Shown: positions 4,134 to 43,128 of the stretch, piece after piece
Layout: each line of letters begins with the position of its first letter
Position numbering within the stretch: position 1 is the first letter of the stretch
Sequence record: MZ234026.1
DNA length: 45,144 nucleotides
Reading direction: 5' to 3' (one strand)
Source of the DNA: Escherichia phage vB_EcoS-CHD2B1
Notes under the pieces: generated by a model
Database searches by the model: none
The model's input: the letters and a program-made list of their open reading frames with translations, nothing else
What the model was told of the DNA's origin: nothing
Made by a program: the position numbers and the translations under genes

Positions 4134-4137
4134 TATA

Positions 4138-4263: not shown

Positions 4264-4269
4264 TATTAT

Positions 4270-4298
4270 CCGGCCCGCTAATCTGCGGGCCTATTTTT
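4270..4298 (+). terminator. Rho-independent terminator (GGCCCGC taatct GCGGGCC tattttt)
   Basis: Perfect 7-bp GC stem followed by T-run. Confidence 0.6.
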
Positions 4299-4311
4299 AG
4301 AGGACGAGACA

Positions 4312-6178: not shown

Positions 6179-6413
6179 GGTGTTTGCATTCGTATTGATG
6201 ATTATGCTCGGCGCGCTGGGCTTTATCCTGCATTGCGTGCAAGGCGTGTTAATGGTGGCCTGGATGATTCGCCATCCGTCCCGCTGGCTGGACGATGGCT
6301 ACAGCGACGTTGCCGTCGATTGGGTCGAGAAGCACATCGACCGACCGCCGTTAAGCTGGATCGAGAACGCCACCAACTACGTGACGCGAAATCTTTTTAA
6401 TAAAAGTGCTTGA
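6171..6413 (+). CDS. Small membrane protein (80 aa)
   Basis: ATG with GAGGA RBS; hydrophobic N-terminal half VFAFVLMIMLGALGFIL. Confidence 0.5.
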   Translation: MNKVFAFVLMIMLGALGFILHCVQGVLMVAWMIRHPSRWLDDGYSDVAVDWVEKHIDRPPLSWIENATNYVTRNLFNKSA

Positions 6414-6438
6414 CCGCTTAGGCGCAACCAAGTAAATT
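6410..6438 (+). promoter_or_regulatory. Sigma70-like promoter TTGACC-N17-TAAATT with GCAACCAA motif in spacer
   Basis: -35 at 6410..6415, -10 at 6433..6438; upstream of the SSB gene. Confidence 0.45.
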
Positions 6439-6502
6439 AGCAACCAAGCCGAACGGGGTGGCTCACAATAACCCCGATACATGCGAAATGAGGAATTGAG
6501 AA

Positions 6503-7294: not shown

Positions 7295-7313
7295 GGGCAA
7301 AGCCCACTATTCA

Positions 7314-7340
7314 AGCCCGCTTATTGCGGGCTTTTTATTA
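7314..7340 (+). terminator. Rho-independent terminator (AAGCCCGC ttatt GCGGGCTT tttatt)
   Basis: 8-bp stem followed by T-run directly after the SSB stop. Confidence 0.65.
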
Positions 7341-7352
7341 GGACAATGAAAA

Positions 7353-7523
7353 ATGCGTATTAAAGCCAGTGAAGTAAAAGTCGGAATGCGTGTATGGTCC
7401 AAATTGCTGGGCGAGTATTTTACCGTTGCCGAGATTCGCAACAACGGCGAAGAGATTGCCTTGTCGGATGGTATCTTCTCCATGATCGGCAGCGCTGACG
7501 CAGTAGTGAGGATAAAGCAATGA
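7353..7523 (+). CDS. Small hypothetical protein (56 aa)
   Basis: ATG at 7353 with AGGA 9 nt upstream; stop overlaps polymerase start (ATGA); below ORF-track cutoff. Confidence 0.4.
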   Translation: MRIKASEVKVGMRVWSKLLGEYFTVAEIRNNGEEIALSDGIFSMIGSADAVVRIKQ

Positions 7524-9811: not shown

Positions 9812-9851
9812 GATTATGAAAGCAGAATTAAGCATAATGCGCGCTGGCGCT

Positions 9852-9880
9852 AACCGGTAGATCTGACATACCGGTAGATC
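9852..9880. repeat. Two direct copies of ACCGGTAGATCT (period 17 bp)
   Basis: aaccggtagatctgacataccggtagatct in the 100-bp gap between polymerase and VRR-NUC genes. Confidence 0.6.
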
Positions 9881-9911
9881 TACGTCTGCGTAACGTGGAG
9901 TTGCAAACCAA

Positions 9912-10190
9912 ATGACACCAGAAGGCAAGATTCAAAGTCACCTGATGCGACGGGTGAAAGAGGTTGGCGGATTCTGCCGCAAGCTGGCATGGGAGGGGCG
10001 CGCAGGTGCGCCCGACCTGATTATTATCATCAACGGCATCATAGTATTCGTCGAAGTGAAGCGCCCCGGAGGAAAACCGAAGCCGCACCAGGTGCGAGAA
10101 CATGAGCGAATGGCCCGCCGCGGTGCTGACGTTCGCGTTATTGACAACATAGCCGACTGCGATTTATTGGTTGCTGAATTGGTCGCGTAG
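9912..10190 (+). CDS. VRR-NUC domain nuclease (PD-(D/E)XK superfamily)
   Basis: 92 aa; GAPDLIII...VFVEVKRPGGKPKPHQ pattern. Confidence 0.65.
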   Translation: MTPEGKIQSHLMRRVKEVGGFCRKLAWEGRAGAPDLIIIINGIIVFVEVKRPGGKPKPHQVREHERMARRGADVRVIDNIADCDLLVAELVA

Positions 10191-10230
10191 CGGTATAGTG
10201 TGCCGGTTAGCCCTATCGAGGATTTTAGAA

Positions 10231-10404
10231 ATGATTGAAGAAAAACGTTGTAGTAATTGCGGATGCATCAAGCCGCTATCCCAGTTCCACAAATACACCG
10301 GAAAGACTGCGCGCAGTCCAGACGGGCATCGGGCCGAGTGCAAATCGTGCCGCAATAAGAAAGAACGTGAACGGCAGCGCCGCTATCGCGCAGAACAAGA
10401 ATAA
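10231..10404 (+). CDS. Small zinc-ribbon protein (CxxC...CxxC), basic C-terminus
   Basis: ATG at 10231 with GAGGA RBS; CSNCGC...CKSCRNKKERERQRR. Confidence 0.45.
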   Translation: MIEEKRCSNCGCIKPLSQFHKYTGKTARSPDGHRAECKSCRNKKERERQRRYRAEQE

Positions 10405-10440
10405 TCAATACGGCGGGCTTGTCCCGCCATTTTTGGAGGC

Positions 10441-10665
10441 ATGACGATGAAAGAACATTACCGACTCACCAAGCTGGGCGAGTGCAAACCTGGCGATCGC
10501 GTATGGTTTATCGCAGGCATGAATTACCCGCTGCCGTTGACAGTGTGCTGGCAGAAGTTTAAGAGCTTCCGCGCGACCGGTGTGCACATTGGACACGCCA
10601 CCAACTACGACGCCACAAAGAGGAATTGGAACAGTGAAACCGAAGTCTGGAAAAAGGCGGAATAA
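10441..10665 (+). CDS. Hypothetical protein (72-74 aa)
   Basis: ATG at 10441 or 10447 after GGAGG. Confidence 0.5.
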   Translation: MTMKEHYRLTKLGECKPGDRVWFIAGMNYPLPLTVCWQKFKSFRATGVHIGHATNYDATKRNWNSETEVWKKAE

Positions 10666-10669
10666 AGAT

Positions 10670-12094
10670 ATGGCACGATTCCGACGTCGCGAATATCAGA
10701 AATTGATAACCGCGTTTATTCTCAAGCATGAGCGCTGCAATATTTGGGCGACAATGGGGTCCGGTAAAACCGGCGCGACTATGTGGGCGCTAAACAAAAT
10801 GTTCCAGACTGGCATCCTGTCCAACCAGGAGGACCGCGTACTGGTGCTGGCCCCGCTGCGCGTTGCGTCCGGTACGTGGCCTCCGGAACAAGAAAAATGG
10901 AGATTCCCCGCCCTGCTGGTAGTAGACGGCACCGGGCCAGAGAAGGACCGCATTGCGGCGCTTGAGAGCAACGCTAACGTGGTTTGTGTCAACTACGATG
11001 TTGTTGAGTGGCTTGTCGAGTATTGCGGCGACGAGTGGCCTTTTACGGTCGTTGTTGCCGATGAATCTACTAAGCTGAAAGGATATCGCAGCAAGCAAGG
11101 CAGTAAGCGCGCACGCGCACTGGCGGCGATCGCACATAAGCACGTCAGGCGCTGGATTAACCTGACCGGCACACCAGCACCAAACGGACTGAAAGACCTA
11201 TGGGGCCAGACGTGGTTTGTCGACGGTGGCGAACGACTCGGCAGTAGCTATAAGGCATTCACCGATCGCTGGTTTATTAGCAAGCCTGTTAAGCCTGGCA
11301 GCTTCACTATGCAGCACGCCCCGCTAAAGAACTCCGAGAAGGAGATCCAACAGCGCCTGTCCGATGTATCCCTTACCGTGGACGCGGCTGAATACTTCGG
11401 ATGTGACAAGCCAATCTACACGCCGGTTGTCGTGGACCTGCCGAAGAAAGCCCGCAAGATTTATGACCAGTTTGAGAGTGAGCTATTTGCCGAACTGGAA
11501 AGCGGAACAGTGGAAGCGGCGAACGCTGCGGCTAAGACCATCAAGTGCCTTCAGCTTGCATCCGGTGCCGTGTATAAGGTGGACGAAGACGGAGAGCGGA
11601 CCGACGAGTGGGAGAAGATTCACGACGCCAAGCTGGACGCGCTGGAAAGTATCGTAGAGGAGTTGAACGGAGCGCCGTTGCTCGTTGCGTACCAGTACAA
11701 GCACGACCTGGCACGTCTGAAGAAGAAGTTTCCCCACGGCGTTGCGATGGGTAAGGGTAAGCAGGGCAATAAGGATATGGAAGCGTGGAACAGGGGCGAG
11801 ATTCCCATCATGTTCGCACACCCGGCATCGGCTGGTCACGGCCTTAACTTGCAGGACGGCGGTCATCACCTGGCTATCTTCTCGGATACGTGGAACTATG
11901 AGCACTTTGCGCAGATCGTGGAGCGTATCGGGCCAGTTCGCCAGATGCAAGCCGGGCACCCTCGACCGGTATTCGTCTATATTATCCAGGCACGCGGGAC
12001 ACTGGACGAACTGGTGGCGGACCGCCGCGATGGTAAGCGCGACATCCAGGACGACTTGATGGAATACATGAAAGCTAAGAAGGTGCGCAAGTGA
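10670..12094 (+). CDS. SNF2/DEAD-like superfamily 2 helicase
   Basis: ATG at 10670 preferred over the GTG at 10580 listed in the ORF track; motif I ATMGSGKTGAT, motif II VVADESTKL, LTGTPAPN. Confidence 0.75.
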   Translation: MARFRRREYQKLITAFILKHERCNIWATMGSGKTGATMWALNKMFQTGILSNQEDRVLVLAPLRVASGTWPPEQEKWRFPALLVVDGTGPEKDRIAALESNANVVCVNYDVVEWLVEYCGDEWPFTVVVADESTKLKGYRSKQGSKRARALAAIAHKHVRRWINLTGTPAPNGLKDLWGQTWFVDGGERLGSSYKAFTDRWFISKPVKPGSFTMQHAPLKNSEKEIQQRLSDVSLTVDAAEYFGCDKPIYTPVVVDLPKKARKIYDQFESELFAELESGTVEAANAAAKTIKCLQLASGAVYKVDEDGERTDEWEKIHDAKLDALESIVEELNGAPLLVAYQYKHDLARLKKKFPHGVAMGKGKQGNKDMEAWNRGEIPIMFAHPASAGHGLNLQDGGHHLAIFSDTWNYEHFAQIVERIGPVRQMQAGHPRPVFVYIIQARGTLDELVADRRDGKRDIQDDLMEYMKAKKVRK

Positions 12095-12786
12095 TTATCT
12101 GGTCATTATTTGACGGCAGCGGCTTGATGATAGAGCGCGCTGCCGAGATGGGGCATAAATGCTACTGTTTCAACTACTCGGAAGCCGATCACGGGTCTTA
12201 CCTTGACTACCGGATTTATGGTCGCGGTATCCGCTATCGTAACGAGTTTATCGATCTGGACTTCGTGGACCGCGCGATGAATGGCGATTTCGGCACGCCG
12301 GATATTATCTACGCGTTTCCGCCGTGTACGGATCTGGCGGTGAGCGGTGCGACAGCTTTCCCGTGCAAGCGTGCGAAAGACCCCGCCTTTCAGCTTAAGG
12401 CAGTGCGCACCGCGAAGATTGCCGCTTACCTGGGTGACTTCTTTGAAGTGCCATATATGATTGAGAATCCGCGCAGTGTGCTATCCACCCAGTGGCGCAA
12501 GCCAGACCACTCGTTTGATCCGTGGGAGTATGGCGGCTATCTGCCGGAGGATGACGTACATCCGTTGTTCCCGGAATACATCAACGACCGCGATTCATAT
12601 CCAAAGCTGACCTGTTTATGGACCGGCAATGGCTTTCGTATGCCGGAGAAAAAGCCGGTATTCGTTGAAAAAGGGTACTCGAAGCAGTATAGTCGCCTCG
12701 GTGGCAAATCTGCCCGCACCAAATTAATCCGGTCGCTCACTCCGCGCGGCTTCGCAATTGCAGTCAATGAGGAAAATTTAAAATGA
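12091..12786 (+). CDS. DNA (cytosine-5)-methyltransferase-like protein, short form
   Basis: GTG start overlapping helicase stop; motif I SLFDGSG, motif IV FPPC, ENV-like MIENP. Confidence 0.55.
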   Translation: MIIWSLFDGSGLMIERAAEMGHKCYCFNYSEADHGSYLDYRIYGRGIRYRNEFIDLDFVDRAMNGDFGTPDIIYAFPPCTDLAVSGATAFPCKRAKDPAFQLKAVRTAKIAAYLGDFFEVPYMIENPRSVLSTQWRKPDHSFDPWEYGGYLPEDDVHPLFPEYINDRDSYPKLTCLWTGNGFRMPEKKPVFVEKGYSKQYSRLGGKSARTKLIRSLTPRGFAIAVNEENLK

Positions 12787-13106
12787 ATACTACATTCGAA
12801 GCCATCGACTTCTCGGTAGCAATGACTAACCAACTATTCACCTACGACAGTAAGACCGGCGTCATCCGTCTGAAGTCTACCGGCTGCAAGATTGGCAACC
12901 TTAACACTGCCGATGGCGGTACGCGTATCGAATGCAACGGCAAGACGCTGTCTGGCGCGCGCGTGGCGTGGATTATCGAGACGGGCAATACAATCCCTCC
13001 AGGTTTCGCCGTTGTGTGCCGCCAGCGCACGCCAGGGCACTACGGCAACCGCATGAGCAACTTGTATCTGGTAGACGTAGCGCGCGACCCAAATTTTTAT
13101 GAATAA
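12783..13106 (+). CDS. HNH_3-like endonuclease family protein, possibly degenerate
   Basis: 107 aa; pattern YDSKTGVI...NGKTLSGARVAWIIETGNTIPPG...GNRMSNL resembles AP2/HNH_3 phage endonucleases but catalytic His positions are not all evident. Confidence 0.4.
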   Translation: MNTTFEAIDFSVAMTNQLFTYDSKTGVIRLKSTGCKIGNLNTADGGTRIECNGKTLSGARVAWIIETGNTIPPGFAVVCRQRTPGHYGNRMSNLYLVDVARDPNFYE

Positions 13107-13111
13107 ATTGG

Positions 13112-13140
13112 TTGCGTAATTAGATTGGTTGCATTATCTT
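13112..13140 (+). promoter_or_regulatory. Putative promoter TTGCGT-N17-TATCTT overlapping two TTGGTTGC motifs
   Basis: Motifs at 13108..13115 and 13125..13132 upstream of gene at 13187. Confidence 0.3.
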
Positions 13141-13186
13141 AAGGGTGTCCGGTTGGACGCCCTTTTTAATACCTGGAGACATTACG

Positions 13187-13429
13187 ATGAAATCATTGTT
13201 TTTCGACTACGATGGCGACCTTCGATTTTGGGTAATACTAACCCTCATGTTTGCCGGTTGTATTGGTATCCCTTCTACGGCTATTTACTACGTCGACCGC
13301 TACGAATGCCAGACCGTGTACGCCGAGCAAACAGGCCGTAATACCCAATGGCGCTACGGTGTTTGCTGGGTAGAGATGGACGGCAAATTTATCCCACGCG
13401 ATGAAATCCGCACTACGGAGCTTAAATAA
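13187..13429 (+). CDS. Small membrane protein (80 aa)
   Basis: ATG with GGAGA RBS; hydrophobic segment FWVILTLMFAGCIGIPSTAIYYV. Confidence 0.5.
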   Translation: MKSLFFDYDGDLRFWVILTLMFAGCIGIPSTAIYYVDRYECQTVYAEQTGRNTQWRYGVCWVEMDGKFIPRDEIRTTELK

Positions 13430-13894
13430 ATGAAAATTTTACAAGAAGAGAAAAATTACTGGGCCGCGCAGTGCCTCGAAGCCCGCGAACAGGCCGAACG
13501 CGCGAACGCGCTGGCAGACACCTACCTTGCGAGCTATGAAGGTGAGGAGAAGGTGCGCAAGGAGTTAGAGGAGCGCTTCGAACTGCTGTTCGAACTGATG
13601 GGGATTATGCAGCGCACCGGATACACAACCACCGCGGTGCTTAATCGCATGACGGCTGAAGGTCTGCGTGAGCATTGCAAACGTGCCGAGGCGTACGTGC
13701 GTCCGAAGGGCCGCCAGTCCGCGGTCGCCCGTAAAGACCTGGTGCTTATGGCGTGGCGACACCCAACAAACGGCAACTTCTACCCGGACGCGCGCCCTTT
13801 GGGGGTGTCGGAGACGCAGCGATTGCAGCGAATCCTGAAGAAAGGGGAAAAGATTGCCCTTTACGCGATAGACACCGACCATGCAGAAGAGTGA
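13430..13894 (+). CDS. Hypothetical protein (154 aa)
   Basis: ORF with ATG start immediately after the upstream stop. Confidence 0.5.
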   Translation: MKILQEEKNYWAAQCLEAREQAERANALADTYLASYEGEEKVRKELEERFELLFELMGIMQRTGYTTTAVLNRMTAEGLREHCKRAEAYVRPKGRQSAVARKDLVLMAWRHPTNGNFYPDARPLGVSETQRLQRILKKGEKIALYAIDTDHAEE

Positions 13895-14366
13895 GCAAAA
13901 GGATAGCTGGCGCACTCCGCCAGCTTTATTTAAACCGCTGCGCCGTAAGTACCGATTTCGTTACGATATGGCTGCAAGCGACGCCAATCACCTGCTACCG
14001 CGCTACTTCACGGCAGAGCATAGCGCGCTTGATGCGGACTGGTCAGAGTTGAAAGGGTGGAAGTGGTGCAACCCGCCGTACTCCGATCCGCTGCCGTGGG
14101 TCGAGTGCGCTGCGCACGGACGCCGTACTGTCATGCTACTGAATCAGGACACGTCAACGAAGTGGGCGAAGCTGGCCCGGAAGACTGCCAATATGATAAT
14201 TCTTCTGGACTGGCGTGTGCGATTTATCCATGCTGTGACCGGCGAAGTTGGGCCGAGCAATAACAAGTGCCAGCAATTGATAATATTTGACGAAGCGCCG
14301 CCCATCGGCAGCGCACAAATTGAAATAATGAGCGAGAGAGAACTACATGAATATCTTAATCGTTGA
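13881..14366 (+). CDS. Phage-type DNA N6-adenine methyltransferase (Dam-like)
   Basis: 161 aa; DSWRTPPALF...DMAASDANHL...WCNPPYS (NPPY catalytic motif). Confidence 0.75.
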   Translation: MQKSEQKDSWRTPPALFKPLRRKYRFRYDMAASDANHLLPRYFTAEHSALDADWSELKGWKWCNPPYSDPLPWVECAAHGRRTVMLLNQDTSTKWAKLARKTANMIILLDWRVRFIHAVTGEVGPSNNKCQQLIIFDEAPPIGSAQIEIMSERELHEYLNR

Positions 14367-14571
14367 CCGCGACCCCGCGGTAGTGGACCAAATGCAAAGG
14401 GACTTCATCATTGACCCGCGCCGCGACCGAGTGATGCGCGCCAGCCGCCCGGAATACATCCTGGGCCTGGACCTCACCGGCTGGCTTGTCATAACCAAGC
14501 GTTGCCATTTTGTATGCAACTCCGTTACTGCGCGAAGCGCCCGCTACACCCTTATTGAGAGCTTAAAATGA
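14347..14571 (+). CDS. Hypothetical protein (74 aa)
   Basis: ORF overlapping neighbours at both ends. Confidence 0.45.
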   Translation: MNILIVDRDPAVVDQMQRDFIIDPRRDRVMRASRPEYILGLDLTGWLVITKRCHFVCNSVTARSARYTLIESLK

Positions 14572-15038
14572 AACTACTGATTTGTGATCTGGATGGCGTT
14601 ATTAATGGTTCAAGTGATGCGCGTGCTGACCTGGTGCCCGGCATAAAAACCAAATCAACCTTTTGGGCGAAGTGGCACAAAGCACACGTACGCGAAGACC
14701 TTAACATGGATATGCTGCCGCTGCTGCGCATGTACAAAGAGCAAGGCTTCGAGATAGCGTATCTGACTAACCGGCAGCGCGAATGCTGGGACACGACCGC
14801 CAAGCAATTGGAAGTATTCCCGACGGGCCGGTTGTTCATGCGCCACATGCTGGACGACACCCCTCCGCCAGAGTTTAAGGCGTGCGCTGTGTTCAAAATG
14901 GTGTGCTATGCGGACGTGTCGGAACTGGTCATCATTGAAGACTGCCCGAAGAATATCGAAGCCATCCGTCGGGCGTGCAGCGATCTGGTCCCTAAAATTT
15001 ATTCTATAAACGTAGCAAAATTTACTTGCAACCAATAG
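14568..15038 (+). CDS. HAD-superfamily phosphatase (possible nucleotidase)
   Basis: N-terminal ICDLDGVI (DxDG motif I of HAD hydrolases). Confidence 0.55.
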   Translation: MKLLICDLDGVINGSSDARADLVPGIKTKSTFWAKWHKAHVREDLNMDMLPLLRMYKEQGFEIAYLTNRQRECWDTTAKQLEVFPTGRLFMRHMLDDTPPPEFKACAVFKMVCYADVSELVIIEDCPKNIEAIRRACSDLVPKIYSINVAKFTCNQ

Positions 15039-15055
15039 GTTGGTTGCACTATAGT
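15026..15055 (+). promoter_or_regulatory. Sigma70-like promoter TTGCAA-N18-TATAGT containing palindromic operator-like site GCAACCAA-tagg-TTGGTTGC
   Basis: Perfect inverted repeat of the recurrent motif between -35 and -10. Confidence 0.5.
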
Positions 15056-15099
15056 TATCTCGTCGGGGGCAATCCGGCCCCACTAAAAAGGAAAACATC

Positions 15100-15621
15100 A
15101 TGAAAGCATTTGAATACTGCAAGAACGCCGCCACCACTATGGAACAGCGCGGGAAAGAGAACGGCTATGATAACGCGAAAGAAGAACGCAGCGCGAAGCA
15201 AATCGCTGCCGTGTTTAACGCGCTTACCGGTCGCGACCTTACAGAGCAAGAAGCCTGGACCTTCCTGATCTGCCTGAAGCTGGTGCGCCAGCACCGTAAG
15301 CACCAGGAAGACAATATTGTTGACCTGGTTGCGTATGCCGCACTACTGGGTGAGTCGCACATGACCGTGCATGATGAGATTCAGATCGATACAACGGCAG
15401 CGCAATTCGACAGCCTCAAGGGTTGGCCCCTTGACATTGCCGGTGCGTGGCATCCTTCGTCATCTGCTGGCAAGATGGTTAACGCCGCCAATTTCGGTGT
15501 GGTAGATCAAGAAGTCCAGCCTATGGTCGTGCTCACTGGCGAGGATGGGTCCAAAATTCTCATGACGCCGGAAGACTTCCGCAACATGGAAAAAACACTG
15601 GTGACTAGCGCACTTAAATAA
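15100..15621 (+). CDS. Hypothetical protein with DUF6378-like helical N-terminal domain
   Basis: 173 aa; SAKQIAAVFNALTGRDLTEQEAWTFLICLKLVRQH...DNIVDLVAYAALLGE. Confidence 0.45.
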   Translation: MKAFEYCKNAATTMEQRGKENGYDNAKEERSAKQIAAVFNALTGRDLTEQEAWTFLICLKLVRQHRKHQEDNIVDLVAYAALLGESHMTVHDEIQIDTTAAQFDSLKGWPLDIAGAWHPSSSAGKMVNAANFGVVDQEVQPMVVLTGEDGSKILMTPEDFRNMEKTLVTSALK

Positions 15622-15663
15622 TTCTAATAGCGGGCTTCGGCCCGCAGCAATGAGGACTTCACA

Positions 15664-16239
15664 ATGTACGGCGAATACGAAATAACCGGTAAACAATTCC
15701 ACATCGCGGCAATGTTAGCAAGCGTCGAGTTTGACCAGTGGCGCTTAAAGTCTGACGCGTGCAAGCAAAGCCGTCTGGTCGGTGTGCTGGGCGAGATGTT
15801 TGCGGGCATGTACCTTGAAGGGCAGGCGGGCGGGCGTAGTTGTATCCCGCAAGGCTTGCTCATGCGTACCGGCCTGTTTAGCGCCAACACCATCGACCGC
15901 GGCGATATTATCATGGTCGGTAAACGCAAGGTTAAGTCTGGCCCCGACTTCCGTGAGCACATGATTGATGCCGTCTGGACCTACGAGGTTAAAGCCACCA
16001 GCGGCATCCGTCGCGGACTGGTAGAAGCCCGTTGCGCTCGCGAATATCTAACCCGTCGAGTTGCCGGTGTTATCCTGGTGGGCGTATCGTTCGGACAACA
16101 TAGCGCGCACGGTGTAATTGAGGATATTGCGGAGCCATACGTGATTGTGAACGATTGGCCCCTGGTGGAAGTAGAAGGCAAGGAATATTATGAGAGTCCG
16201 CTGGTGCGGCGAAAAATGGATTGGGAAAACTCAAACTAA
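15664..16239 (+). CDS. Hypothetical protein (191 aa)
   Basis: ATG with GAGGA RBS; last gene of plus-strand block. Confidence 0.5.
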   Translation: MYGEYEITGKQFHIAAMLASVEFDQWRLKSDACKQSRLVGVLGEMFAGMYLEGQAGGRSCIPQGLLMRTGLFSANTIDRGDIIMVGKRKVKSGPDFREHMIDAVWTYEVKATSGIRRGLVEARCAREYLTRRVAGVILVGVSFGQHSAHGVIEDIAEPYVIVNDWPLVEVEGKEYYESPLVRRKMDWENSN

Positions 16240-35681: not shown

Positions 35682-36777
35682 GCCATAACCCCCGGTTTTT
35701 AAGCTGTGCAATAGTCATTAGTTCGCCAGTATCTGTGAACATCCTCGGCACTTTCACGCCGCGCATAATCTGGTCTGCGCGCTGCACCCCATATAATTCC
35801 TCCAGAATATGGCGCGGCTGGCGCTGCACCCATGAGAAGAAATCAGTCTGCGCGTCGACCTGCTCACTCAGCAATCGACCCGCGTCAGCCTTCAGTGCCG
35901 GACGCTTACCACTGGGCCAATCTTCCATGCCTTTGACTTTCCACGTCTCCGTAGACCGGCAGCAATAATGCAGCTTGCCCGGACCAGCGCCATATTGTGA
36001 CCCAGCCACCACTTTCCCGCCGCGCTTTCCTTTGGTGTCGGGAGTAACATCAACTGGATAAAACAGGCGATCGCGTAGCTGGCACATGGGAGAAGTATGC
36101 GTATCCAATGTAGCCAACCATTGGCGACCTTCGAGAATATCGTCATTAGCTTTTACCATTAATTCGCGGGCGGTCGCCGCATAGTGGTTTACTGCGGACT
36201 TAACAACGCTTGAGATTGCCTGCGCACTACGACCGCCGAGAGCGCGCCTTACGTCCGCGATAATTTCCATAGTCGGCTTGCCCTGGATGAATCCAGCGCG
36301 CACCTGATTACCGATCTGCGTCCTGGTCCACTCCGAAAGTGAATCGGGCCATTGCATCATGGTGTTACCCTGGAATGGGTTTTTCATAGCCGTCGCTGCG
36401 ATCTGCGCGCCAGTCACTACGCCAACAACCTCAACAGCCGGTACGGCGACCGCTGGCTGGATCGCTGCCGTTAATGTATCGGCAAGATAATCAGCCTCCG
36501 TGTCGGCGAACTCCTGAAGGCTTTCAGCCAGCGCCTTAAACTCGGTGCGCAGTTCCGTTTTGACGGTCTTGTCGATTTGCGTTAACAGTGTGGTCAGTGC
36601 CTTGTTATTCATGGACTTTTTGCCATCAAGTAACTCGGTCAGCTTACCAAGTAACGTGGGCCGGAACTTCTCCCACATAGTCAGCACCCTTCGCGCCTGG
36701 TCATTGCTCAGGCGCTGGGTGAAGATGTGACGGCGAATCATACGATCCGCCATATGTTGATTAATTGTTCTCGCCAT
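35674..36777 (-). CDS. Head morphogenesis protein (Mu F / SPP1 gp7-like minor head protein)
   Basis: 367 aa; position immediately downstream of portal. Confidence 0.6.
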   Translation of the reverse strand: MARTINQHMADRMIRRHIFTQRLSNDQARRVLTMWEKFRPTLLGKLTELLDGKKSMNNKALTTLLTQIDKTVKTELRTEFKALAESLQEFADTEADYLADTLTAAIQPAVAVPAVEVVGVVTGAQIAATAMKNPFQGNTMMQWPDSLSEWTRTQIGNQVRAGFIQGKPTMEIIADVRRALGGRSAQAISSVVKSAVNHYAATARELMVKANDDILEGRQWLATLDTHTSPMCQLRDRLFYPVDVTPDTKGKRGGKVVAGSQYGAGPGKLHYCCRSTETWKVKGMEDWPSGKRPALKADAGRLLSEQVDAQTDFFSWVQRQPRHILEELYGVQRADQIMRGVKVPRMFTDTGELMTIAQLKNRGLWRD

Positions 36778-38281
36778 TGTCCGTTACCTTGTCCGGGTCT
36801 TCTTCGGTAGATTCTACCGCATCAGGGGACATTTGAGGCAATGGATTCTGATTTCGCAATTCGTCTTCCACCTGCTCGACGGTTTGCGAGTCGTCGATAA
36901 CGCCCTGCGCCATCATCCACTTGATAAAGTCAGCCAGTCGGACCGTGCCAGTCTGCACACCTGACATCATTGCGGTCATAAGCTGCGCGTCAACCGTGAT
37001 TTCGGTGTAGAACTTGTTCAACGTGACTTGCTGCACTGCGGTGTCACCGGTGAATAGCTGGACGATTTGCAGCGCACGGTTGAAAGCCTTCTCAACGTTA
37101 CCGGCAATGAGCGACAAGATACTGTTATCAGTCTGCGCATCGTAGGCCGCTTCGGTTGCCGTCTTCGGTGCGGTCCCCTTCTCAACCAGGGCCGCGCCCA
37201 GTTTAGCCATCTGCAATTCGCGGCGCTCACAAAGTGCAACAGACAAGTTGCGCTCCTCGGCCTGAATCAGTTTAGCGTCCATGTTCTGGCCCAGGATAAC
37301 GCCCTTAGTCGCACCGAGAGCGATGCCACCCTTCAGGTTTTTGTCGGCCCATGATTGAGTCAAGCCCGTGGCAACCAGGGTAGGCTGGCCCACGATGTGC
37401 GCAATCTCGGCGACGTCCGCCTCAGCGTTGTAGTGCTTAATGTTGATGGATGCAATATCCGCCAGCGGCGCGGCGTCCGGCGTGGCGTTGTTGTCCACTG
37501 CACCACACCAGCAAAATGGCAGTTGAGTAAGCGCCCGACCGGCAGCATCTACCAAAGGTACAAGGTCGGTGCGGGTGAATCCGCGCGGCAAGTCCATTTG
37601 CACCTCGGACGTGTCCGCGTTGTAAAACCAGCGGCGGGCGTGCGCCTTGCCGTCAACCATGCGAAGCTCGGTCCAGATCGTTACTTCGTGGTTTGCGAAG
37701 TCGTCCGGGTCTTCGGTGCTGATTTCGTCCGTTTCCTTCAGCACGATTAGCGTATCGACGCCGTGAGTCTGCCGCCAGTTGATGATCTGTTCTGCCGTAT
37801 ACAGGCGGATAAGCGGGCGGTGTGTCGCCATCTCGGCGGCGGTCTGCGGCACTACGTTACCCAGTTCATCAAAGTTAGCCTGGCGGTCGTAGTCCACCAT
37901 AAAGCCAGCGCGGCCCGATTGCAGCACTTCCGACATAGCACCGCGCAGGAGTTGCGCGAGCGGCATTCCGCTGCCGTCTACGTCATCAATCAGGTCAGCC
38001 ATCGCCCCGGTAAGGTCCACACTAACAGGTTTAGCGAAAGCAACGCCTAACAGCGCGTTAAGAGTACGTGCGGTGGCGTTCAGGAATACAGCACGTTGCT
38101 TATACGCCTTATATCGCGCCCGTGCTTTCGGGTCGGTATTGTCGCCACTGGCTGGGTGGGGCAGGTACAAAGGACCGCACGCCTTCACGGCGCGCTCCCC
38201 TGCTACGCAATCCCGAATCATTTTCCACTCTTGCGCGATGCGCGCATAGAGTGGGTGTTGGTTGTCAACGTTAACGGTCAT
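36761..38281 (-). CDS. Portal protein
   Basis: 506 aa from ATG 38281 (AAGGAA RBS); position downstream of terminase large subunit. Confidence 0.7.
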   Translation of the reverse strand: MTVNVDNQHPLYARIAQEWKMIRDCVAGERAVKACGPLYLPHPASGDNTDPKARARYKAYKQRAVFLNATARTLNALLGVAFAKPVSVDLTGAMADLIDDVDGSGMPLAQLLRGAMSEVLQSGRAGFMVDYDRQANFDELGNVVPQTAAEMATHRPLIRLYTAEQIINWRQTHGVDTLIVLKETDEISTEDPDDFANHEVTIWTELRMVDGKAHARRWFYNADTSEVQMDLPRGFTRTDLVPLVDAAGRALTQLPFCWCGAVDNNATPDAAPLADIASINIKHYNAEADVAEIAHIVGQPTLVATGLTQSWADKNLKGGIALGATKGVILGQNMDAKLIQAEERNLSVALCERRELQMAKLGAALVEKGTAPKTATEAAYDAQTDNSILSLIAGNVEKAFNRALQIVQLFTGDTAVQQVTLNKFYTEITVDAQLMTAMMSGVQTGTVRLADFIKWMMAQGVIDDSQTVEQVEDELRNQNPLPQMSPDAVESTEEDPDKVTDNGENN

Positions 38282-38291
38282 GGTCGTTTCC

Positions 38292-39677
38292 TTAGTAGAA
38301 GTCAACAGTTGGAACAACGGCGATAGGACGAATCACTGGGAACAGGTGCGCAATTGGATAGCCCGCGGCATCGTTCATGTGGTCCACACCGGCGGTTTTA
38401 TCCGGCTCGCCTTTCTTCAGGTCATAAACCTGCTGTTCCAGACATTTCGCTAGTGTAGGGCATTTATCCATGTTGACAAAATACTGGCGCACGCCCTTCG
38501 AGTTGCACATCATCGTATTCATCGCGATCAATCTGTCTTTTACAGGCGGGTTGACGCTGTCATACTCCACCTCGAAGCCAGCGTCTTCCAGTTGCGCGAT
38601 ATCGGACGACGATGCGTTAACAGTCTTACGAGACTTGCCACTGCTATCCGGGTAAACGACGACCCGACCGGCAGCACAATGATCGGGGTAGCGCTCCTCG
38701 ATCGCCTCAATCATAGCCGGGGTATCAAACAGGTCCACGAATTCATCCACTGCGTGAATCTCGTCGCGGAACTCCTTGTTCTCGGTAGTGTGCTGCCGTC
38801 TGACGTACACAACCGCCGCCATTTTCGTTACGTTAAAGTCCATACCGATAATCAGCGTATCATCCGGTTGCACTTCCTCGGTGCTGGCGTTCTCTTCGCG
38901 GTTAAACATCTTGTAGACCGCGCCAGACGTAAGGTTGACAAACAGGCCGTTCAGGTATGCATCAATCAGGTTTGCCGGGTACTGGCTCCGCAGCGTGTCG
39001 ATAAAGTCTGCCGGTAAGTGGTGATTATCGGTAGTCTTCGCCCTGATCAAACGTTTCTGGCTATCCTTCTCCACTTCGAAAATCTGGTACATCGCCCGGA
39101 AGCCTTCAGGCGTGGATACGATGACGAACTGGCGCACCAGGCCCGCACGCAGACGACCAAGCAATTTGTGATATGCCGCCATAGCGACGTCTTGCTTAGT
39201 GGTGTCGAACTCATCGGCAACAATCCACGCGGCGTTAACCCCGATCAGGCGGGTGTAGTTCTCCATTGACTCACAAATAACGCGGGTCCATTTGCCTTTC
39301 ACCAGCACGCTATAAATCTTGTCTTGCTTGTTGAACTTCCACCGGAATCCAGCCTCGTCGAATGCCTTCTCAAGCTCCGGGTACATGATTTTAACCAGGA
39401 GTGGAATAGTCGGTTCTGTAACGATGCCATCATGACCGGGGTTAAGTGTGAGAAGCTGGATGACCTTACGCGCCGCTACCCACGACTTTCCGCCACCGAA
39501 GCCGGAGCAAAGGCCGAGGATTTTAGTCTTCGTGTCGCGCAGCAGTTCTACCTGGTGCGGAAGGCAATCAGGCTGATACAGGCGGACGGCCTGCGCAACG
39601 CGCGTAGGGCGTGGCGGTCGGTTGCGCTTTGCGATCGCGCGTTCAAGTGCGCGGTGTTCTGCCGCATAGTTACGCAT
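38292..39677 (-). CDS. Terminase large subunit
   Basis: 461 aa; Walker A GLCSGFGGGKS, Walker B WIVADEFD; C-terminal nuclease region. Confidence 0.85.
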   Translation of the reverse strand: MRNYAAEHRALERAIAKRNRPPRPTRVAQAVRLYQPDCLPHQVELLRDTKTKILGLCSGFGGGKSWVAARKVIQLLTLNPGHDGIVTEPTIPLLVKIMYPELEKAFDEAGFRWKFNKQDKIYSVLVKGKWTRVICESMENYTRLIGVNAAWIVADEFDTTKQDVAMAAYHKLLGRLRAGLVRQFVIVSTPEGFRAMYQIFEVEKDSQKRLIRAKTTDNHHLPADFIDTLRSQYPANLIDAYLNGLFVNLTSGAVYKMFNREENASTEEVQPDDTLIIGMDFNVTKMAAVVYVRRQHTTENKEFRDEIHAVDEFVDLFDTPAMIEAIEERYPDHCAAGRVVVYPDSSGKSRKTVNASSSDIAQLEDAGFEVEYDSVNPPVKDRLIAMNTMMCNSKGVRQYFVNMDKCPTLAKCLEQQVYDLKKGEPDKTAGVDHMNDAAGYPIAHLFPVIRPIAVVPTVDFY

Positions 39678-40228
39678 TACTCACCCTGGCCTTTGCCGGT
39701 AGGTTCCACAACGACGTCGCCGTTATCATCTTCGTCGTCATCCAGCGGCGCATCGTCACGAATGCCGTGGTTGGCTTTAAGCAGGAACGTAGCGAAGCCC
39801 GCCGCGATGGTCACGCCGCCAGCTTCCATCAGGAAAGTTTTCTGCAACTCCATAGCGTCCGCCATCGCTTCGGCGAACTCCTCATGTGCGCGCGCCCAGC
39901 GATACAGGCAGGCGATGCCTACACCAATATTTGCAGCGAATCGACCGAGAGTCGGCATCATGTTTCGAGGGATGACTTGCGCAGCGCCCTTGTCGGAGTA
40001 GTTGATCTGCCAGGCTACGGCATCGGCGAAATAGCGACGAAGCTGGTCACAATACACGGTGCGGTAGTCGGTCGGGCGTCCGCATTTGCCGCCTTTACGA
40101 CGCTTGCCGTATTCGATCTCTGGTCCAAGATTGGTGTGTTCTGTTTGCTCGCCTGGTTTACGGCGCGGGGTAACTGCTACTCGTCCGTCCAGTTTGGCAC
40201 GACGGCCCTTAACTTTGATTTCTGCCAT
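39677..40228 (-). CDS. Terminase small subunit
   Basis: 183 aa from ATG 40228; HTH-like PTLGRFAANIGVGIACLYRWARAHEEF; acidic C-terminus; TAATG coupling with large subunit. Confidence 0.65.
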   Translation of the reverse strand: MAEIKVKGRRAKLDGRVAVTPRRKPGEQTEHTNLGPEIEYGKRRKGGKCGRPTDYRTVYCDQLRRYFADAVAWQINYSDKGAAQVIPRNMMPTLGRFAANIGVGIACLYRWARAHEEFAEAMADAMELQKTFLMEAGGVTIAAGFATFLLKANHGIRDDAPLDDDEDDNGDVVVEPTGKGQGE

Positions 40229-40311
40229 GATATAAGCCCTTTTATGCATATGCGCCGACCATCGGCAACATAGGAGACGGCCCAGCCATCTAAGGGGGAT
40301 TATAACAGGCA

Positions 40312-40338
40312 CAAAAAAGCCCACCAAATCGGCGGGCT
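40312..40338 (-). terminator. Rho-independent terminator on minus strand (GCCCGCC gattt GGTGGGC plus 6 T)
   Basis: Located between gene 40346..40558 and terminase small subunit gene. Confidence 0.55.
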
Positions 40339-40345
40339 GGGAGGG

Positions 40346-40558
40346 TTAAACGGCGCGACCGTAGTATCTGGTCAACATGCTTTCTACTTCGCTTATAGCG
40401 CCTTCTGTGTAGCGTATCTGCGATAGTATCTCGATCCGCTCACTGATAGACATGCCTATTGCCGCTGCCGTTCGTTCGAATCGGCGCAAGCCTTCAAGCT
40501 GTTTGCGAAGCTCTTTCAGGCGGGTGGCCTGCGTGCTCATGAATACTTGTCTAATCAT
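40346..40558 (-). CDS. Small coiled-coil hypothetical protein (70 aa)
   Basis: ORF overlapping the upstream gene stop. Confidence 0.45.
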   Translation of the reverse strand: MIRQVFMSTQATRLKELRKQLEGLRRFERTAAAIGMSISERIEILSQIRYTEGAISEVESMLTRYYGRAV

Positions 40559-41697
40559 TTCAACATTTCCGGGCTAATGGTTAAGCGCGCTACTTCGCCG
40601 TAGTTGGCGCTATAGGTGATGACGTTAGCACTACGACCAGACATCCAACCGCCGCGGCTCGCATATGCGTCTTTCGCGGCAAGGGTCCGGTGCTGTTCAA
40701 CAATCATGTTGCGGGATTCAACAATCTTCTGGTGGTGCAAGTGGCCCACGTGCGCGTAGCTGTACTCACTGGACCCGAAAGCCTGTCTGAATTTAGAAAT
40801 CATGACCGGTTCGATGGCGTCAAAGCGTGCTTTGTGTCCGTGGTGGAAGAACAGCGTTGTTTTACCGTGCTGCACCATTTTGTAAACGTCCGGGGACGTG
40901 TCCACATCAACGCGCGGCTCGTTCTCGTACAGGGTATTGAACATCTCAGCCAGCCAAATCATACCGGACTCATCATGATTACCCTGGACGATTAACAGTT
41001 TGACCTTATGGTGTTTTTGCAGCGCCAGTTCAACCACGTTGCGCACCATGCAAATCATGTAGCGGACCAGTTTCTGGTAGCGGGTATCTGCGTCCAGTAC
41101 GTGACCACTGGCTGGCGTGACGGCGTCGAGGCTGTCAAAGTGGGCCATATCACCGAGGATATTGATTACAGCAGTGCCAGCGTCCGGCGCGCGGGCGAAG
41201 GCTTCGACAAACCAGCGGTAAAAAAGGTCTTCGGCGATTGCCATATCCCAGTCCTCGCCAGTCTCCTCGCCCCACGCCAACATTCCCAGGTGGAAGTCTG
41301 ACACGGTATACAGGTTAAGCAGGTCAAGCGCCTGGATCGGGACTGGCGGAGCGCTCACTGGTGCTGCCGGTGTGATTTCGCTATTCATGCCCTCGACAAC
41401 GGCGCGCATTGCTTCGAGTTGGCGCTCCTTGTCCTGCTCGGTGATAACCCAGGACATGACCTCTTCGCCATTGCCACGCACAAGGGCGGAGACACGCTTA
41501 ACGCCGAAGCCATCGGCAACGCGCTTACGGATTACAGCATCGTTGCCGTGTCCAATGCCTTTCTTCGACAGGCGAGCTTTGCGCATATAGACATTTCGAA
41601 GGGCAATGCCGTATTTCTTCGCAATATCTTTCGAGGTAGTGCCAGATTGCAATTCAGCGATCAATTGCTCGTCGGTAATTTTAGTTTGCGGGTGCAT
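40555..41697 (-). CDS. Calcineurin-like metallophosphoesterase (SbcD/Mre11-like motifs) with N-terminal helix-turn-helix domain
   Basis: 380 aa; N-terminal TSKDIAKKYGIALRNVYMRK; motifs YTVSDFHLG, ILGDMAHFD, VQGNHDE, GHLHH. Confidence 0.65.
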   Translation of the reverse strand: MHPQTKITDEQLIAELQSGTTSKDIAKKYGIALRNVYMRKARLSKKGIGHGNDAVIRKRVADGFGVKRVSALVRGNGEEVMSWVITEQDKERQLEAMRAVVEGMNSEITPAAPVSAPPVPIQALDLLNLYTVSDFHLGMLAWGEETGEDWDMAIAEDLFYRWFVEAFARAPDAGTAVINILGDMAHFDSLDAVTPASGHVLDADTRYQKLVRYMICMVRNVVELALQKHHKVKLLIVQGNHDESGMIWLAEMFNTLYENEPRVDVDTSPDVYKMVQHGKTTLFFHHGHKARFDAIEPVMISKFRQAFGSSEYSYAHVGHLHHQKIVESRNMIVEQHRTLAAKDAYASRGGWMSGRSANVITYSANYGEVARLTISPEMLK

Positions 41698-41759
41698 ATT
41701 AATTTACTTCCTGATTGAGAGGACCGAGGACAATATACCACGGTCCCTATGGCGGCGGG

Positions 41760-41840
41760 CTATAGCAATTCGCAAATAGCCATACCGATGAATGCGGCGG
41801 CGGACCAGATTGCCAGTACATAAATATCATTGCGTGTCAT
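41760..41840 (-). CDS. 26-aa hydrophobic peptide
   Basis: ATG 41840 preceded by strong RBS GAAGGAG; sequence MTRNDIYVLAIWSAAAFIGMAICELL. Confidence 0.3.
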   Translation of the reverse strand: MTRNDIYVLAIWSAAAFIGMAICELL

Positions 41841-41863
41841 AGTGTATTACTCCTTCTCGTTGA

Positions 41864-41895
41864 TTGGTTGCAGTATGGCCCTTATGTTGGTTGCA
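41864..41895. promoter_or_regulatory. Pair of TTGGTTGCA motifs (spacing 23 bp)
   Basis: gattggttgcagtatggcccttatgttggttgcaag between terminator 41905..41932 and the small peptide gene. Confidence 0.4.
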
Positions 41896-41904
41896 AGTCA
41901 AGCA

Positions 41905-41932
41905 ATAAAAAGCCCGGAATTAACCGGGCTTC
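41905..41932 (-). terminator. Rho-independent terminator on minus strand (AGCCCGG ttaatt CCGGGCT plus TTTTTATT)
   Basis: Immediately after the lysis cassette. Confidence 0.6.
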
Positions 41933-41936
41933 GTGT

Positions 41937-42107
41937 TTATGCCGCGGGGCCTGGTTCTTCCGGCGGTGGCGGGCTTGGCAGCTTCGCGTCAAAGACACCC
42001 GCATGACTGATAGTGTCCGCGATAATGGCGCGCGCGCCTGGGTCTTCCGTTTTAGCCAGTGCGGCAAGCGCGTCCGCGTTATGATCAAGAATACTTTTTA
42101 ACATACT
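41937..42107 (-). CDS. Small protein with Pro-rich C-terminus (56 aa), last gene of lysis cassette
   Basis: ATG 42107 with AAGAGGAA RBS; ...KLPSPPPPEEPGPAA. Confidence 0.5.
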   Translation of the reverse strand, partial: SMLKSILDHNADALAALAKTEDPGARAIIADTISHAGVFDAKLPSPPPPEEPGPAA

Positions 42108-42120
42108 GTGTTTCCTCTTA

Positions 42121-42612
42121 TTATGCCGCGTTACGACCGATTTTCTCGGCAACGTCCCACTGCTTACCATCGAATAGCGCCTGTCTGCCGATTGCACGAC
42201 GTACCAGGCCCTTGAGCACTTCACCGCCTTGCTTGCGGAACTGCGGCAGCGTAGCACGGACTTTGGCCCAATCACCCAGGCGCACCGCGTCATCGAAGTC
42301 ATTGGCAATGTTATCCGGTACGATCGGACCTTGACCGGCATTGATTACCAGATCCACCAGCGCGTCGAATTGCGCCTGATTGATGCTCGGGTGTGCGTAC
42401 TTGTTCACCCAGTTCTCGGCATACGCCACATCACGCTTGAGTAGCTCCAGCGCTTCCGCGCGGGTAATGCTCTGTGGCGGATTAGTGCCAGTATGACCGT
42501 AGCCCCAGGTGTACAAGCCGCGGGCCTGCTCCTTCTTAGTCGCGAAATACGGCACTGGGCTGAACGACTCCCACGCTGCCGTAAATCTTAGACCGTTGTC
42601 ACTAAATCGCAT
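42121..42612 (-). CDS. Endolysin, phage lysozyme (glycoside hydrolase family 24-like)
   Basis: 163 aa; GLYTWGYGHTG and NQAQFDALVDLVINAGQ resemble the P22/T4-type lysozyme core. Confidence 0.8.
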   Translation of the reverse strand: MRFSDNGLRFTAAWESFSPVPYFATKKEQARGLYTWGYGHTGTNPPQSITRAEALELLKRDVAYAENWVNKYAHPSINQAQFDALVDLVINAGQGPIVPDNIANDFDDAVRLGDWAKVRATLPQFRKQGGEVLKGLVRRAIGRQALFDGKQWDVAEKIGRNAA

Positions 42613-42841
42613 GTTTTACCCCATTTAAAACAGCATTACGCAGTGTGCGTAATGCGAATAGCCAGATTAGCACGGACCAGACTGTATTCGATACGTCCCC
42701 CGTTTGCATCAGGCCAATAATACAGGTCATTGCTGTAAGCAGGTAGAGCACCCGTCCGCAAATGCCATCCTGGACGGATGGCGCGTATACGTTATACAGC
42801 GACGAAGCCCCGATCACTAATAACAGGATGGCGATAATCAT
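42602..42841 (-). CDS. Holin or antiholin (small membrane protein)
   Basis: 79 aa with 2-3 predicted TM helices; directly upstream of endolysin. Confidence 0.55.
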   Translation of the reverse strand: MIIAILLLVIGASSLYNVYAPSVQDGICGRVLYLLTAMTCIIGLMQTGDVSNTVWSVLIWLFALRTLRNAVLNGVKHAI

Positions 42842-43128
42842 TTTGCATTCCCCGGCAGACGGAACGAGGAAATTGCTTCACGGATTCTGGCGGCGACCGG
42901 CATCCAGAAGATTGCCGTTACGAAGCCAAGACCGGCGACAGTTCTCGGTCCGGTTAGATTAAACCACTCGGCAATAGCTGGTGCCCCAAACACGGCGCAC
43001 AAGAAGCCGACCACGATAAACAACACAAAATTTAGCGGCCCTTTCGTTGCCTCACCGTGAATGCGAGCGCCAACGAAGCCACCTGCAAGACACGCGAGGG
43101 CGAATAACCACTCGTTTAGCTTATCCAT
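42838..43128 (-). CDS. Holin (small membrane protein)
   Basis: 96 aa; TM helices WLFALACLAGGFVGA and FVLFIVVGFLCAVFGA; charged C-terminus. Confidence 0.6.
   Translation of the reverse strand: MDKLNEWLFALACLAGGFVGARIHGEATKGPLNFVLFIVVGFLCAVFGAPAIAEWFNLTGPRTVAGLGFVTAIFWMPVAARIREAISSFRLPGNAK

Follow-up and report, generated by a model that had tools for sequence, protein, structure and literature searches.

In the genome of Escherichia phage vB_EcoS-CHD2B1 (MZ234026.1), a 45,144-nucleotide stretch referred to below as the window, a minus-strand gene encodes a protein in which a helix-turn-helix (HTH) segment is fused to a metallophosphoesterase (MPE) domain of the calcineurin-like type whose active site is intact. 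The protein is a typical representative of PHROG 704, a phage family that has already been catalogued, and as a sequence feature it is nothing new. What does such a protein do for the phage? We tentatively favour the answer, which we stop short of calling probable, that it is a stand-alone, HTH-tethered, Mn2+-type DNA nuclease that degrades host or bulk DNA. This answer is drawn from the intact active site, a fold of the nuclease branch, the fused DNA-binding domain, and the salvage and end-healing genes found beside family members. A DNA nuclease was one of the functions proposed in an earlier inspection of the letters alone (hereafter the sequence-only reading) and is the most defensible of them; here we infer the substrate (DNA), the metal, the biological role and its timing.

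A conserved gene of a widespread phage family

The open reading frame (ORF) starts with ATG and encodes 380 residues, and the ORF list bears out the coordinates and length given in the sequence-only reading exactly. This is a real, well-conserved gene and no chance ORF, since it matches the PHROG 704 profile at E=6e-160 and evolves at a dN/dS of 0.018. The latter value comes from the comparison with phage mckay (90.4% nucleotide and 97.6% amino-acid identity) and indicates strong purifying selection. The window is a complete genome of a Dhillonvirus (HK578-like coliphage); at 45,144 bp it is as long as whole genomes of that genus, relatives measuring 44.0-47.1 kb. The 2.7-kb region round the gene has 99% identity to Escherichia phage vB_EcoS-101114B2, and of the 167 phage records that it matches nearly all are Dhillonvirus (HK578-like) coliphages. 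No prophage or chromosomal copy was found by blastn in 5,426 complete E. coli genomes, so the gene belongs to virulent phages.

The match to PHROG 704, a family named 'DNA repair exonuclease', scores 533.6 bits and aligns residues 5-380 with positions 2-390 of the 390-position profile. A deposited protein of phage Bas83, also named 'DNA repair exonuclease', is 99.7% identical, and many other Dhillonvirus genomes hold deposits at 97-99.7% identity. Phage T1 gp16 (ST16) is 45% identical over residues 4-379, HTH included. Homologues were detected by tblastn in 2,060 phage records, from Dhillonvirus, Kagunavirus, Jerseyvirus, Jedunavirus, Drexlerviridae (T1-like, Webervirus) and Casjensviridae to Vibrio, Ruegeria, Flavobacterium and Campylobacter phages; at the level of 50%-identity clusters, 4,616 representatives match at E <= 0.001 and 1,120 at E <= 1e-30. 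In a published survey the gene is persistent in 508 of 522 Drexlerviridae (PMC13164509).

The sequence-only reading had called the fusion atypical, which does not hold: HTH-MPE is the normal layout of the family, as judged by the full-length profile match, the 2,060 records and T1 gp16. When the three parts were searched with separate hidden Markov models (HMMs) among full-length representatives, the N-terminal (HTH) region was found in 135 of 142 and the hairpin module that follows it in 136 of 142; the seven without an N-terminal match still show HTH-like sequence. The same three-part architecture is shared, with no difference of substance, by T1 gp16 and by the 'phosphoesterase' genes of Dhillonvirus, Kagunavirus and Jerseyvirus. 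Deposited names accordingly cover both halves ('HTH luxR-type domain-containing protein', 'sigma-70 region 4 domain-containing protein', 'calcineurin-like phosphoesterase'), in addition to 'phosphoesterase', 'DNA repair exonuclease' and 'similar to DNA polymerase II small subunit, HHpred 99.59'. A shorter, HTH-less form of 317 residues (E=9e-103 to PHROG 704) occurs in T4-like Campylobacter phages, where it is annotated 'putative recombination endonuclease'; in phage F365 it lies directly after a DNA ligase gene (locus L003, 4848-5801).

Three-part architecture and active-site motifs

The protein consists of a three-helix HTH, a beta-hairpin/helix module and the MPE domain (Table 1). In the AlphaFold2 (AF2) model, the middle module is formed by strands 64-73 and 79-88 and a helix at 90-105/107. 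It carries an invariant W83 and a near-invariant G77 and is family-specific; no PDB match covers residues 63-106, and no PDB counterpart was found.

Conservation was assessed in an alignment of 87 sequences, comprising the query, 84 full-length representatives (from 150 collected representatives of 50%-identity clusters) and two closer homologues, the relatives being 32-81% identical to the query. D134, H136, G182, D183, T194, N240, H241, H286, G318 and H321 are invariant, and H186, D188, D242, H285, H288 and H319 are conserved in at least 90% of the sequences. Non-conservation of the catalytic residues, which the sequence-only reading had named as fatal to its proposal, is thus not what the alignment shows. 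The motifs it had listed are all present in the translation (SDFHLG 133-138, GDMAHFD 182-188, GNHDE 239-243, GHLHH 318-322), motif III being encoded on the minus strand by GGTAATCATGAT, and motif IV, HHGH 285-288, which was absent from its list, can be added. The HTH and the calcineurin-like phosphoesterase, joined in one chain and with the active site intact, are therefore confirmed. With metal ligands that are invariant or at least 90% conserved in the 87 relatives, and with the low dN/dS, the protein is predicted to be an active enzyme.

The family is divergent and falls below the gathering scores of Pfam (Metallophos, 23.2 bits against 27; Metallophos_2, 18.7 against 21.5), so its place in the calcineurin-like superfamily rests on motifs and fold. 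Both are found: five motifs (DxH, GD, GNH[D/E], H, GHxH) and the MPE beta-sandwich. The HTH resembles the DNA-binding domains of LuxR/NarL and sigma region 4 proteins. When the family profile was compared with the PDB, GerE (E=0.04) and Thermotoga maritima Mre11 (E=0.36) were found, both marginally; single-sequence PDB matches to designed repeat proteins are spurious. Averaged over the 84 diverse relatives, identity to the query is lowest in the HTH (19.5%), intermediate in the hairpin module (30%) and highest in the MPE domain (45%). The DNA-binding surface thus diverges fastest, a pattern that would fit either non-specific binding or lineage-specific targets.

Relation to known metallophosphoesterases

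In a fold search, the nearest folds are double-strand-break (DSB) repair and proofreading nucleases. They are followed by LpxH (13.9), MJ0936 (13.4) and further Mre11/SbcD chains (13.1-13.4), and the same list holds Vps29, YfcE, Rv0805 (12.2) and GpdQ (12.1). PdeM, or 'Nuclease MPE' (9.0), and PPP protein phosphatases (<=9.1) score lower. The neighbours in BFVD are phage proteins of 370-480 residues, often named 'DNA polymerase II small subunit', and a phage 'SbcD' first appears at rank 50. As modelled, the catalytic fold looks like that of the nuclease branch of the calcineurin-like superfamily, yet the protein does not belong to the SbcD/Mre11 family.

The 'SbcD/Mre11 arrangement' of the sequence-only reading consequently stands in part. 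The shared superfamily motifs and an Mre11/SbcD-like catalytic nuclease domain are present; the capping domain, the Rad50-binding tail and a match to the family model are not, and membership was rejected with them. The chain stops 59 residues past motif V, and those residues complete the core sheets, so that there is no room for a capping domain or a Rad50-binding tail. Pfam Mre11_DNA_bind and SbcD_C match neither the query nor any of the 87 sequences, and the NCBIfam SbcD model does not match the protein. The hhalign probability against E. coli SbcD is 3%, over 15 columns only, at GNHD. E. coli SbcD, Bxb1 gp47 and T5 A1 are assigned to PHROG 100, 221 and 1745, respectively, and none of them to 704. 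Furthermore, Mre11/SbcD and the phage gp47-type nucleases lack the HTH and hairpin module that the present protein carries at its N-terminus. The absence of an SbcC-like partner, claimed earlier, was corroborated: the large ORFs of the replication region carry other functions (608-2872 is a helicase-primase in relatives), with no SbcC/Rad50-like ATPase among them, and none adjoins the gene in the nine other phage genera examined.

DP1, the small subunit of archaeal DNA polymerase D and a 3'-5' proofreading exonuclease, is 13% identical. The OB fold at the N-terminus of DP1 is replaced here by the HTH and hairpin, and the phosphodiesterase-plus-OB, DP2-bound form is not found; there is no DP2 polymerase partner, and T1-like phages that carry the PHROG 704 gene encode no DNA polymerase at all. 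Protein phosphatases of the lambda Ser/Thr type share the superfamily fold. A lambda-like enzyme was rejected, with an hhalign probability of 0.5% against lambda NinI, PPP folds low in the fold search, and neither the PPP signatures (GDxHG, GDxVDRG, GNHE) nor the PPP fold in the protein. PdeM was likewise rejected (TIGR04123, 12.4 bits against a cut-off of 150; fold score 9.0). It is nevertheless comparable as a stand-alone MPE nuclease that occurs with repair enzymes, as the Campylobacter-phage homologue adjoins DNA ligase.

Two phage MPEs that act on host DNA deserve closer comparison. The mycobacteriophage family of Bxb1 gp47 and A10ZJ24 gp48 is not the family at hand (hhalign probability 4.7%, other PHROG). 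Bxb1 gp47 doubles as an excision directionality factor, and the cluster A proteins are about 255 residues long, lack the HTH and are encoded by early genes of the replication module. A10ZJ24 gp48 has phosphodiesterase and DNase activity in vitro, is toxic, destroys host genomic DNA and is required for phage replication in M. tuberculosis (PMC12287305). T5 A1, a predicted metallophosphatase described as sharing features with DSB-repair and proofreading nucleases, is the only factor that is both necessary and sufficient for degrading host DNA; it works alongside the DNA-binding protein A2 (bioRxiv 10.64898/2026.04.02.716235). A profile of T5 A1 built from eight relatives (40-100% identical) matches the PHROG 704 profile weakly (probability 39%, E=3e-4), over 130 columns that span motifs III-V and include an NHDxxxSxWL stretch. 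This is suggestive of a homology beyond that of the superfamily, which is unproven; the protein itself has no match to PHROG 1745. T5 A1 differs in its length (556 residues), in its N-terminal half, in being a pre-early gene product and in leaving DNA binding to a separate protein, and T5 A2 shows no detectable relation to the HTH (1.6%).

A possible nuclease of host DNA

We propose that the protein would act as a binuclear-metal (Mn2+-type) phosphodiesterase in which two metals are held by D134/H136, D183, N240/H241, H286 and H319/H321. The HTH, and probably the Trp-bearing hairpin, would bind duplex DNA, as the HTH-MPE layout in 135 of the 142 representatives suggests, and the catalytic domain would hydrolyse DNA phosphodiester bonds as an exonuclease, a single-strand endonuclease or both. 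It would work alone, without a Rad50/SbcC ATPase, because no such ATPase was found, the chain ends soon after motif V and no neighbour is conserved. During infection, its role would be the bulk breakdown or trimming of DNA, most likely of the host chromosome, which would feed nucleotide salvage and silence the host. By analogy, it may be a single-chain functional counterpart of T5 A1 (the MPE) plus A2 (the DNA-binding protein), and of A10ZJ24 gp48.

Several points weigh against this proposal. Sequence kinship to characterised nuclease MPEs is marginal or absent (SbcD 3%, Bxb1 gp47 4.7%, T5 A1 39%). The gene is located within or next to late modules (lysis, packaging, tail) and not in early host-takeover regions, so a late or repair role fits at least as well as an early destruction of host DNA. 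The HTH evolves so fast that its target is unpredictable from sequence, and no mechanism is evident by which phage DNA would be spared. Full-text literature searches returned annotation of PHROG 704 only and no experimental paper on the family; a Tn-seq preprint, a Druantia/Zorya preprint, a PUA-Cal-HAD preprint and a daunorubicin paper make no mention of it. Phage T1 probably needs its 'gene 2.5' for host DNA degradation, and no link of that gene to gp16 is established.

Gene neighbourhood and rival explanations

The neighbourhood of the gene bears on several of the alternatives. No neighbour is constant across genera, and the gene tends to lie at module junctions beside lysis or packaging genes. 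In Drexlerviridae, the order is methyltransferase, small ORFs, MPE, then variously an SH3, HNH, polynucleotide kinase (PNK) or deoxynucleoside monophosphate (dNMP) kinase gene, and holin-endolysin-spanin; in Jedunavirus, MPE, PNK, dNMP kinase, one gene and terS; in Yersinia phage X1, endolysin, one gene, MPE, PNK, one gene and portal; and in Rhodobacter phage RcCWillis, holin, endolysin, two genes and MPE, with a divergently oriented DNA methylase gene. In Guernseyvirinae, the MPE gene forms an opposite-strand island inside the tail genes. On a metagenomic phage contig, it lies just downstream of a large ORF and DUF4055 (portal-like) genes, in a block that also has tail genes, and in Campylobacter myoviruses the HTH-less 317-residue form directly follows DNA ligase. 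The dNMP kinase and PNK genes are the recurrent neighbours, an adjacency also reported in the published survey of Drexlerviridae (PMC13164509).

Two further features of these loci were observed. In T1, Warwickvirus, RcCWillis and Synechococcus phage S-CBS2 (loci L008 (T1), 39024-41955; L005, 2393-5104; L012, 3246-6090; L065, 1190-3426), the PHROG 704 gene has a DNA methyltransferase gene no more than a few genes away, which is not so in the CHD2B1 Dhillonvirus; this could be chance, or it might hint that the phage protects itself against its own nuclease. HNH homing-endonuclease genes have repeatedly been inserted immediately 3' of the gene in different phages (L008, 42028-42510, T1 gp15; L006, 5159-5659; L018, 1370-2008), and this junction appears to be a hotspot for mobile endonucleases.

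The strongest rival is that the enzyme processes or repairs the phage's own DNA ends, as a Rad50-independent Mre11/DP1-like 3'-5' exonuclease or a hairpin/flap endonuclease. It would prepare ends for recombination-dependent replication, concatemer maturation or the repair of breaks inflicted by defence systems, together with end-healing and sealing enzymes. The nearest folds, those of DSB-repair and proofreading nucleases, agree with such a role. So do the PNK gene directly after it in Jedunavirus and X1, and in those Drexlerviridae without an adjoining SH3 gene (PMC13164509), as well as the ligase gene directly before it in Campylobacter phages. It is also a persistent core gene where replication uses recombination modules (RecE/Erf in T1, a gp2.5-like annealing protein here), and it adjoins packaging genes in Dhillonvirus, Jedunavirus and X1. 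However, a Rad50-like clamp, a capping domain and a known recombination partner are all missing, the phage already has a separate exonuclease (PHROG 69), and the neighbourhood varies across genera. The late-module location and the PNK and ligase neighbours keep this explanation very much alive, even if we consider it unlikely on balance. Between the two substrates, we lean, with the reserve already expressed, towards host or bulk DNA rather than the phage's own ends.

The same kinase and ligase neighbours could be read as signs of an end-healing phosphoesterase, a 2',3'-cyclic phosphodiesterase or 3'-phosphatase that would act with PNK on broken RNA or DNA. In bacterial Pnkp, the MPE domain works in this way, and MPE chemistry is compatible with it. 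Recurrent as these adjacencies are, neither PNK nor ligase lies beside the gene in the CHD2B1 window, and in T1 the pnk gene is about 35 kb away from gp16. An HTH would be unexpected for RNA repair, and the closest folds are nucleases, not Pnkp-type phosphatases; we regard this function as improbable.

Somewhat less credible again is a counter-defence phosphodiesterase that would destroy cyclic (oligo)nucleotide immune signals, a candidate of the sequence-only reading for which no positive support emerged. A conserved DNA-binding HTH would have no obvious role in it, and nuclease-type MPEs rank higher in the fold search. The literature searched links no PHROG 704 member to defence evasion, and no PADLOC model was matched, that library being one of defence models and not of anti-defence; a component of a defence system was rejected on the same search. 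The known phosphodiesterases Acb1 (anti-CBASS) and Apyc1 (anti-Pycsar) have a 2H-phosphoesterase or metallo-beta-lactamase fold. Finally, the gene is a persistent core gene and not a variable accessory one (PMC13164509). Least probable of all is a transcription regulator with its HTH at promoters, or a Ser/Thr protein phosphatase like that of lambda, despite the resemblance of the HTH to LuxR/NarL and sigma region 4 domains and the position of the gene just upstream of the late packaging operon.

The cassette and the rest of the window

The position between packaging and lysis genes, as described in the sequence-only reading, agrees with the ORF list and with the annotation of relatives. Judged from its sequence, the MPE gene is the main gene of a small, terminator-bracketed cassette that separates the lysis from the terminase genes. 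Read along the minus strand, the order is lysis genes (the last a 55-codon ORF), a terminator-like hairpin, a promoter-like site, a 26-codon ORF, the MPE gene, a 70-residue ORF, a second hairpin and terS (Table 1). Promoter-like sites are not, by their count in the scan, above chance. Yet both hexamers of this one are invariant in five Dhillonviruses, while in phage mckay the spacer varies, as does the loop, though not the conserved stem, of the lysis-side hairpin; a promoter of the cassette's own after the lysis genes is thereby mildly supported. An Rfam scan found no family at threshold, the sub-threshold matches being on the opposite strand at the bidirectional terminator, and no unusually stable fold was seen in the 86-nucleotide leader (z-score -0.73), so a structured RNA or riboswitch in the leader was rejected.

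The candidate 26-codon ORF is preceded, 9 nt upstream, by a strong Shine-Dalgarno sequence, AAGGAG (41850-41855), and is kept in the five Dhillonviruses with both synonymous and non-synonymous changes; it could encode a small membrane protein or a leader peptide. The 70-residue ORF lies immediately 3' of the MPE gene in the Dhillonviruses examined, and, overlapping its stop, is probably co-translated with it. As a conserved small partner it was rejected, because nothing beside the gene in Kagunavirus, Jerseyvirus, Vibrio or Campylobacter phages resembles it convincingly.

Table 1. Features of the window discussed in the text
Feature	Position	Strand	Basis or remark
CDS of the HTH-MPE protein, PHROG 704, orthologue of phage T1 gp16	40555..41697	-	ORF list, PHROG HMM, dN/dS
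Shine-Dalgarno AGGAAG, 9 nt 5' of the MPE ATG	41707..41712	-	read from sequence; kept in 5 Dhillonviruses
N-terminal three-helix HTH DNA-binding domain, aa 5-46	41560..41685	-	
Beta-hairpin plus helix module, aa 63-106	41380..41511	-	AF2 model
Calcineurin-like MPE catalytic domain, aa 126-380	40558..41322	-	
MPE motif I, D134-x-H136	41290..41298	-	87-sequence alignment
MPE motif II, G182-D183-x-x-H186-x-D188	41134..41154	-	87-sequence alignment
MPE motif III, G239-N240-H241-D242	40972..40983	-	87-sequence alignment
MPE motif IV, H285-H286-G287-H288	40834..40845	-	G287 also >=90%
MPE motif V, G318-H319-x-H321	40735..40746	-	87-sequence alignment
70-aa ORF, PHROG 20931 (E=9e-48); ATG overlaps the MPE stop by 4 nt	40346..40558	-	annotated in relatives
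Intrinsic-terminator-like hairpin closing the cassette, just upstream of terS	40318..40338	-	scan; terminator in phage WFI annotation
Candidate 26-codon hydrophobic mini-ORF, unannotated (MTRNDIYVLAIWSAAAFIGMAICELL)	41760..41840	-	ORF list
Sigma-70 promoter-like element TTGACT-18-CATACT, directly after the terminator	41872..41901	-	scan, 9/12 matches
Intrinsic-terminator-like hairpin closing the lysis genes, upstream of the cassette	41909..41932	-	scan; terminator in phage WFI annotation
Endolysin, upstream of MPE	42121-42612	-	
Annotated holin genes, upstream of MPE	42838-43128 and 42602-42841		
Terminase small subunit (TerS), downstream of MPE	39677-40327		
Terminase large subunit (TerL), downstream of MPE	38292-39677		
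Portal, downstream of MPE	36761-38317		
Helicase-primase	608-2872	-	annotation in relatives
Exonuclease, PHROG 69	4748-6178	+	
gp2.5-like single-strand binding (SSB)/annealing protein	6503-7294	+	
Family-A-type DNA polymerase	7520-9811	+	
Helicase	10580-12094	+	
Methyltransferase	12091-12786	+	

Among the lysis genes, a 134-residue ORF (41937-42341, minus strand) covers the 3' end of the endolysin gene in another reading frame. Of this ORF, only the final 55 codons (about 41937-42104) match a small gene, which relatives annotate variously as 40, 53, 55 or 137 residues, and phage WFI carries an Ig-like (Big_2) gene in its place. No Rz/Rz1-type spanin is annotated in the Dhillonvirus genomes examined. 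Elsewhere, the window holds a T7-like replication set at 3435-16239 (plus strand) and 608-2872 (minus strand), and the remaining large ORF besides the replication genes encodes a tail fibre. Across the ends of the window, the helicase-primase shares its strand with the lysis, MPE and packaging genes, which makes the window resemble a circularly permuted form of the genome. A 109-residue ORF at 2883-3212 (minus strand) matches PHROG 9366, named 'transposase', and is named 'DNA recombination nuclease inhibitor gamma' in the record of phage rolling.

Implications

The novelty of the gene is low, given that the family is catalogued and the member ordinary. What remains of interest is a T1-type core gene with a clearly intact active site and no assigned function in the literature searched. 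It is persistent in T1-like and several other siphovirus groups of E. coli, Salmonella and Klebsiella, and its carriers include therapy candidates and phages of the BASEL collection. It is conceivable, although rather unlikely, that PHROG 704 is the host-DNA-degradation function of T1-type siphoviruses at large, with the A1 and A2 of T5 united in one chain and placed in a cassette of its own beside the lysis and packaging genes. As a variant, the nuclease could act late, in a step coupled to packaging or lysis, and remove host DNA or DNA left unpackaged.

If the nuclease proposal is true, more than 2,000 sequenced phages would have a function for one of their core genes, and the family would represent a third, Rad50-independent and HTH-guided class of Mre11/DP1-like nucleases. 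Recent work links the destruction of host genomes to two unrelated phage MPEs, T5 A1 and mycobacteriophage gp48; were PHROG 704 to share this activity, host-DNA degradation by stand-alone MPE nucleases might prove a general phage strategy.

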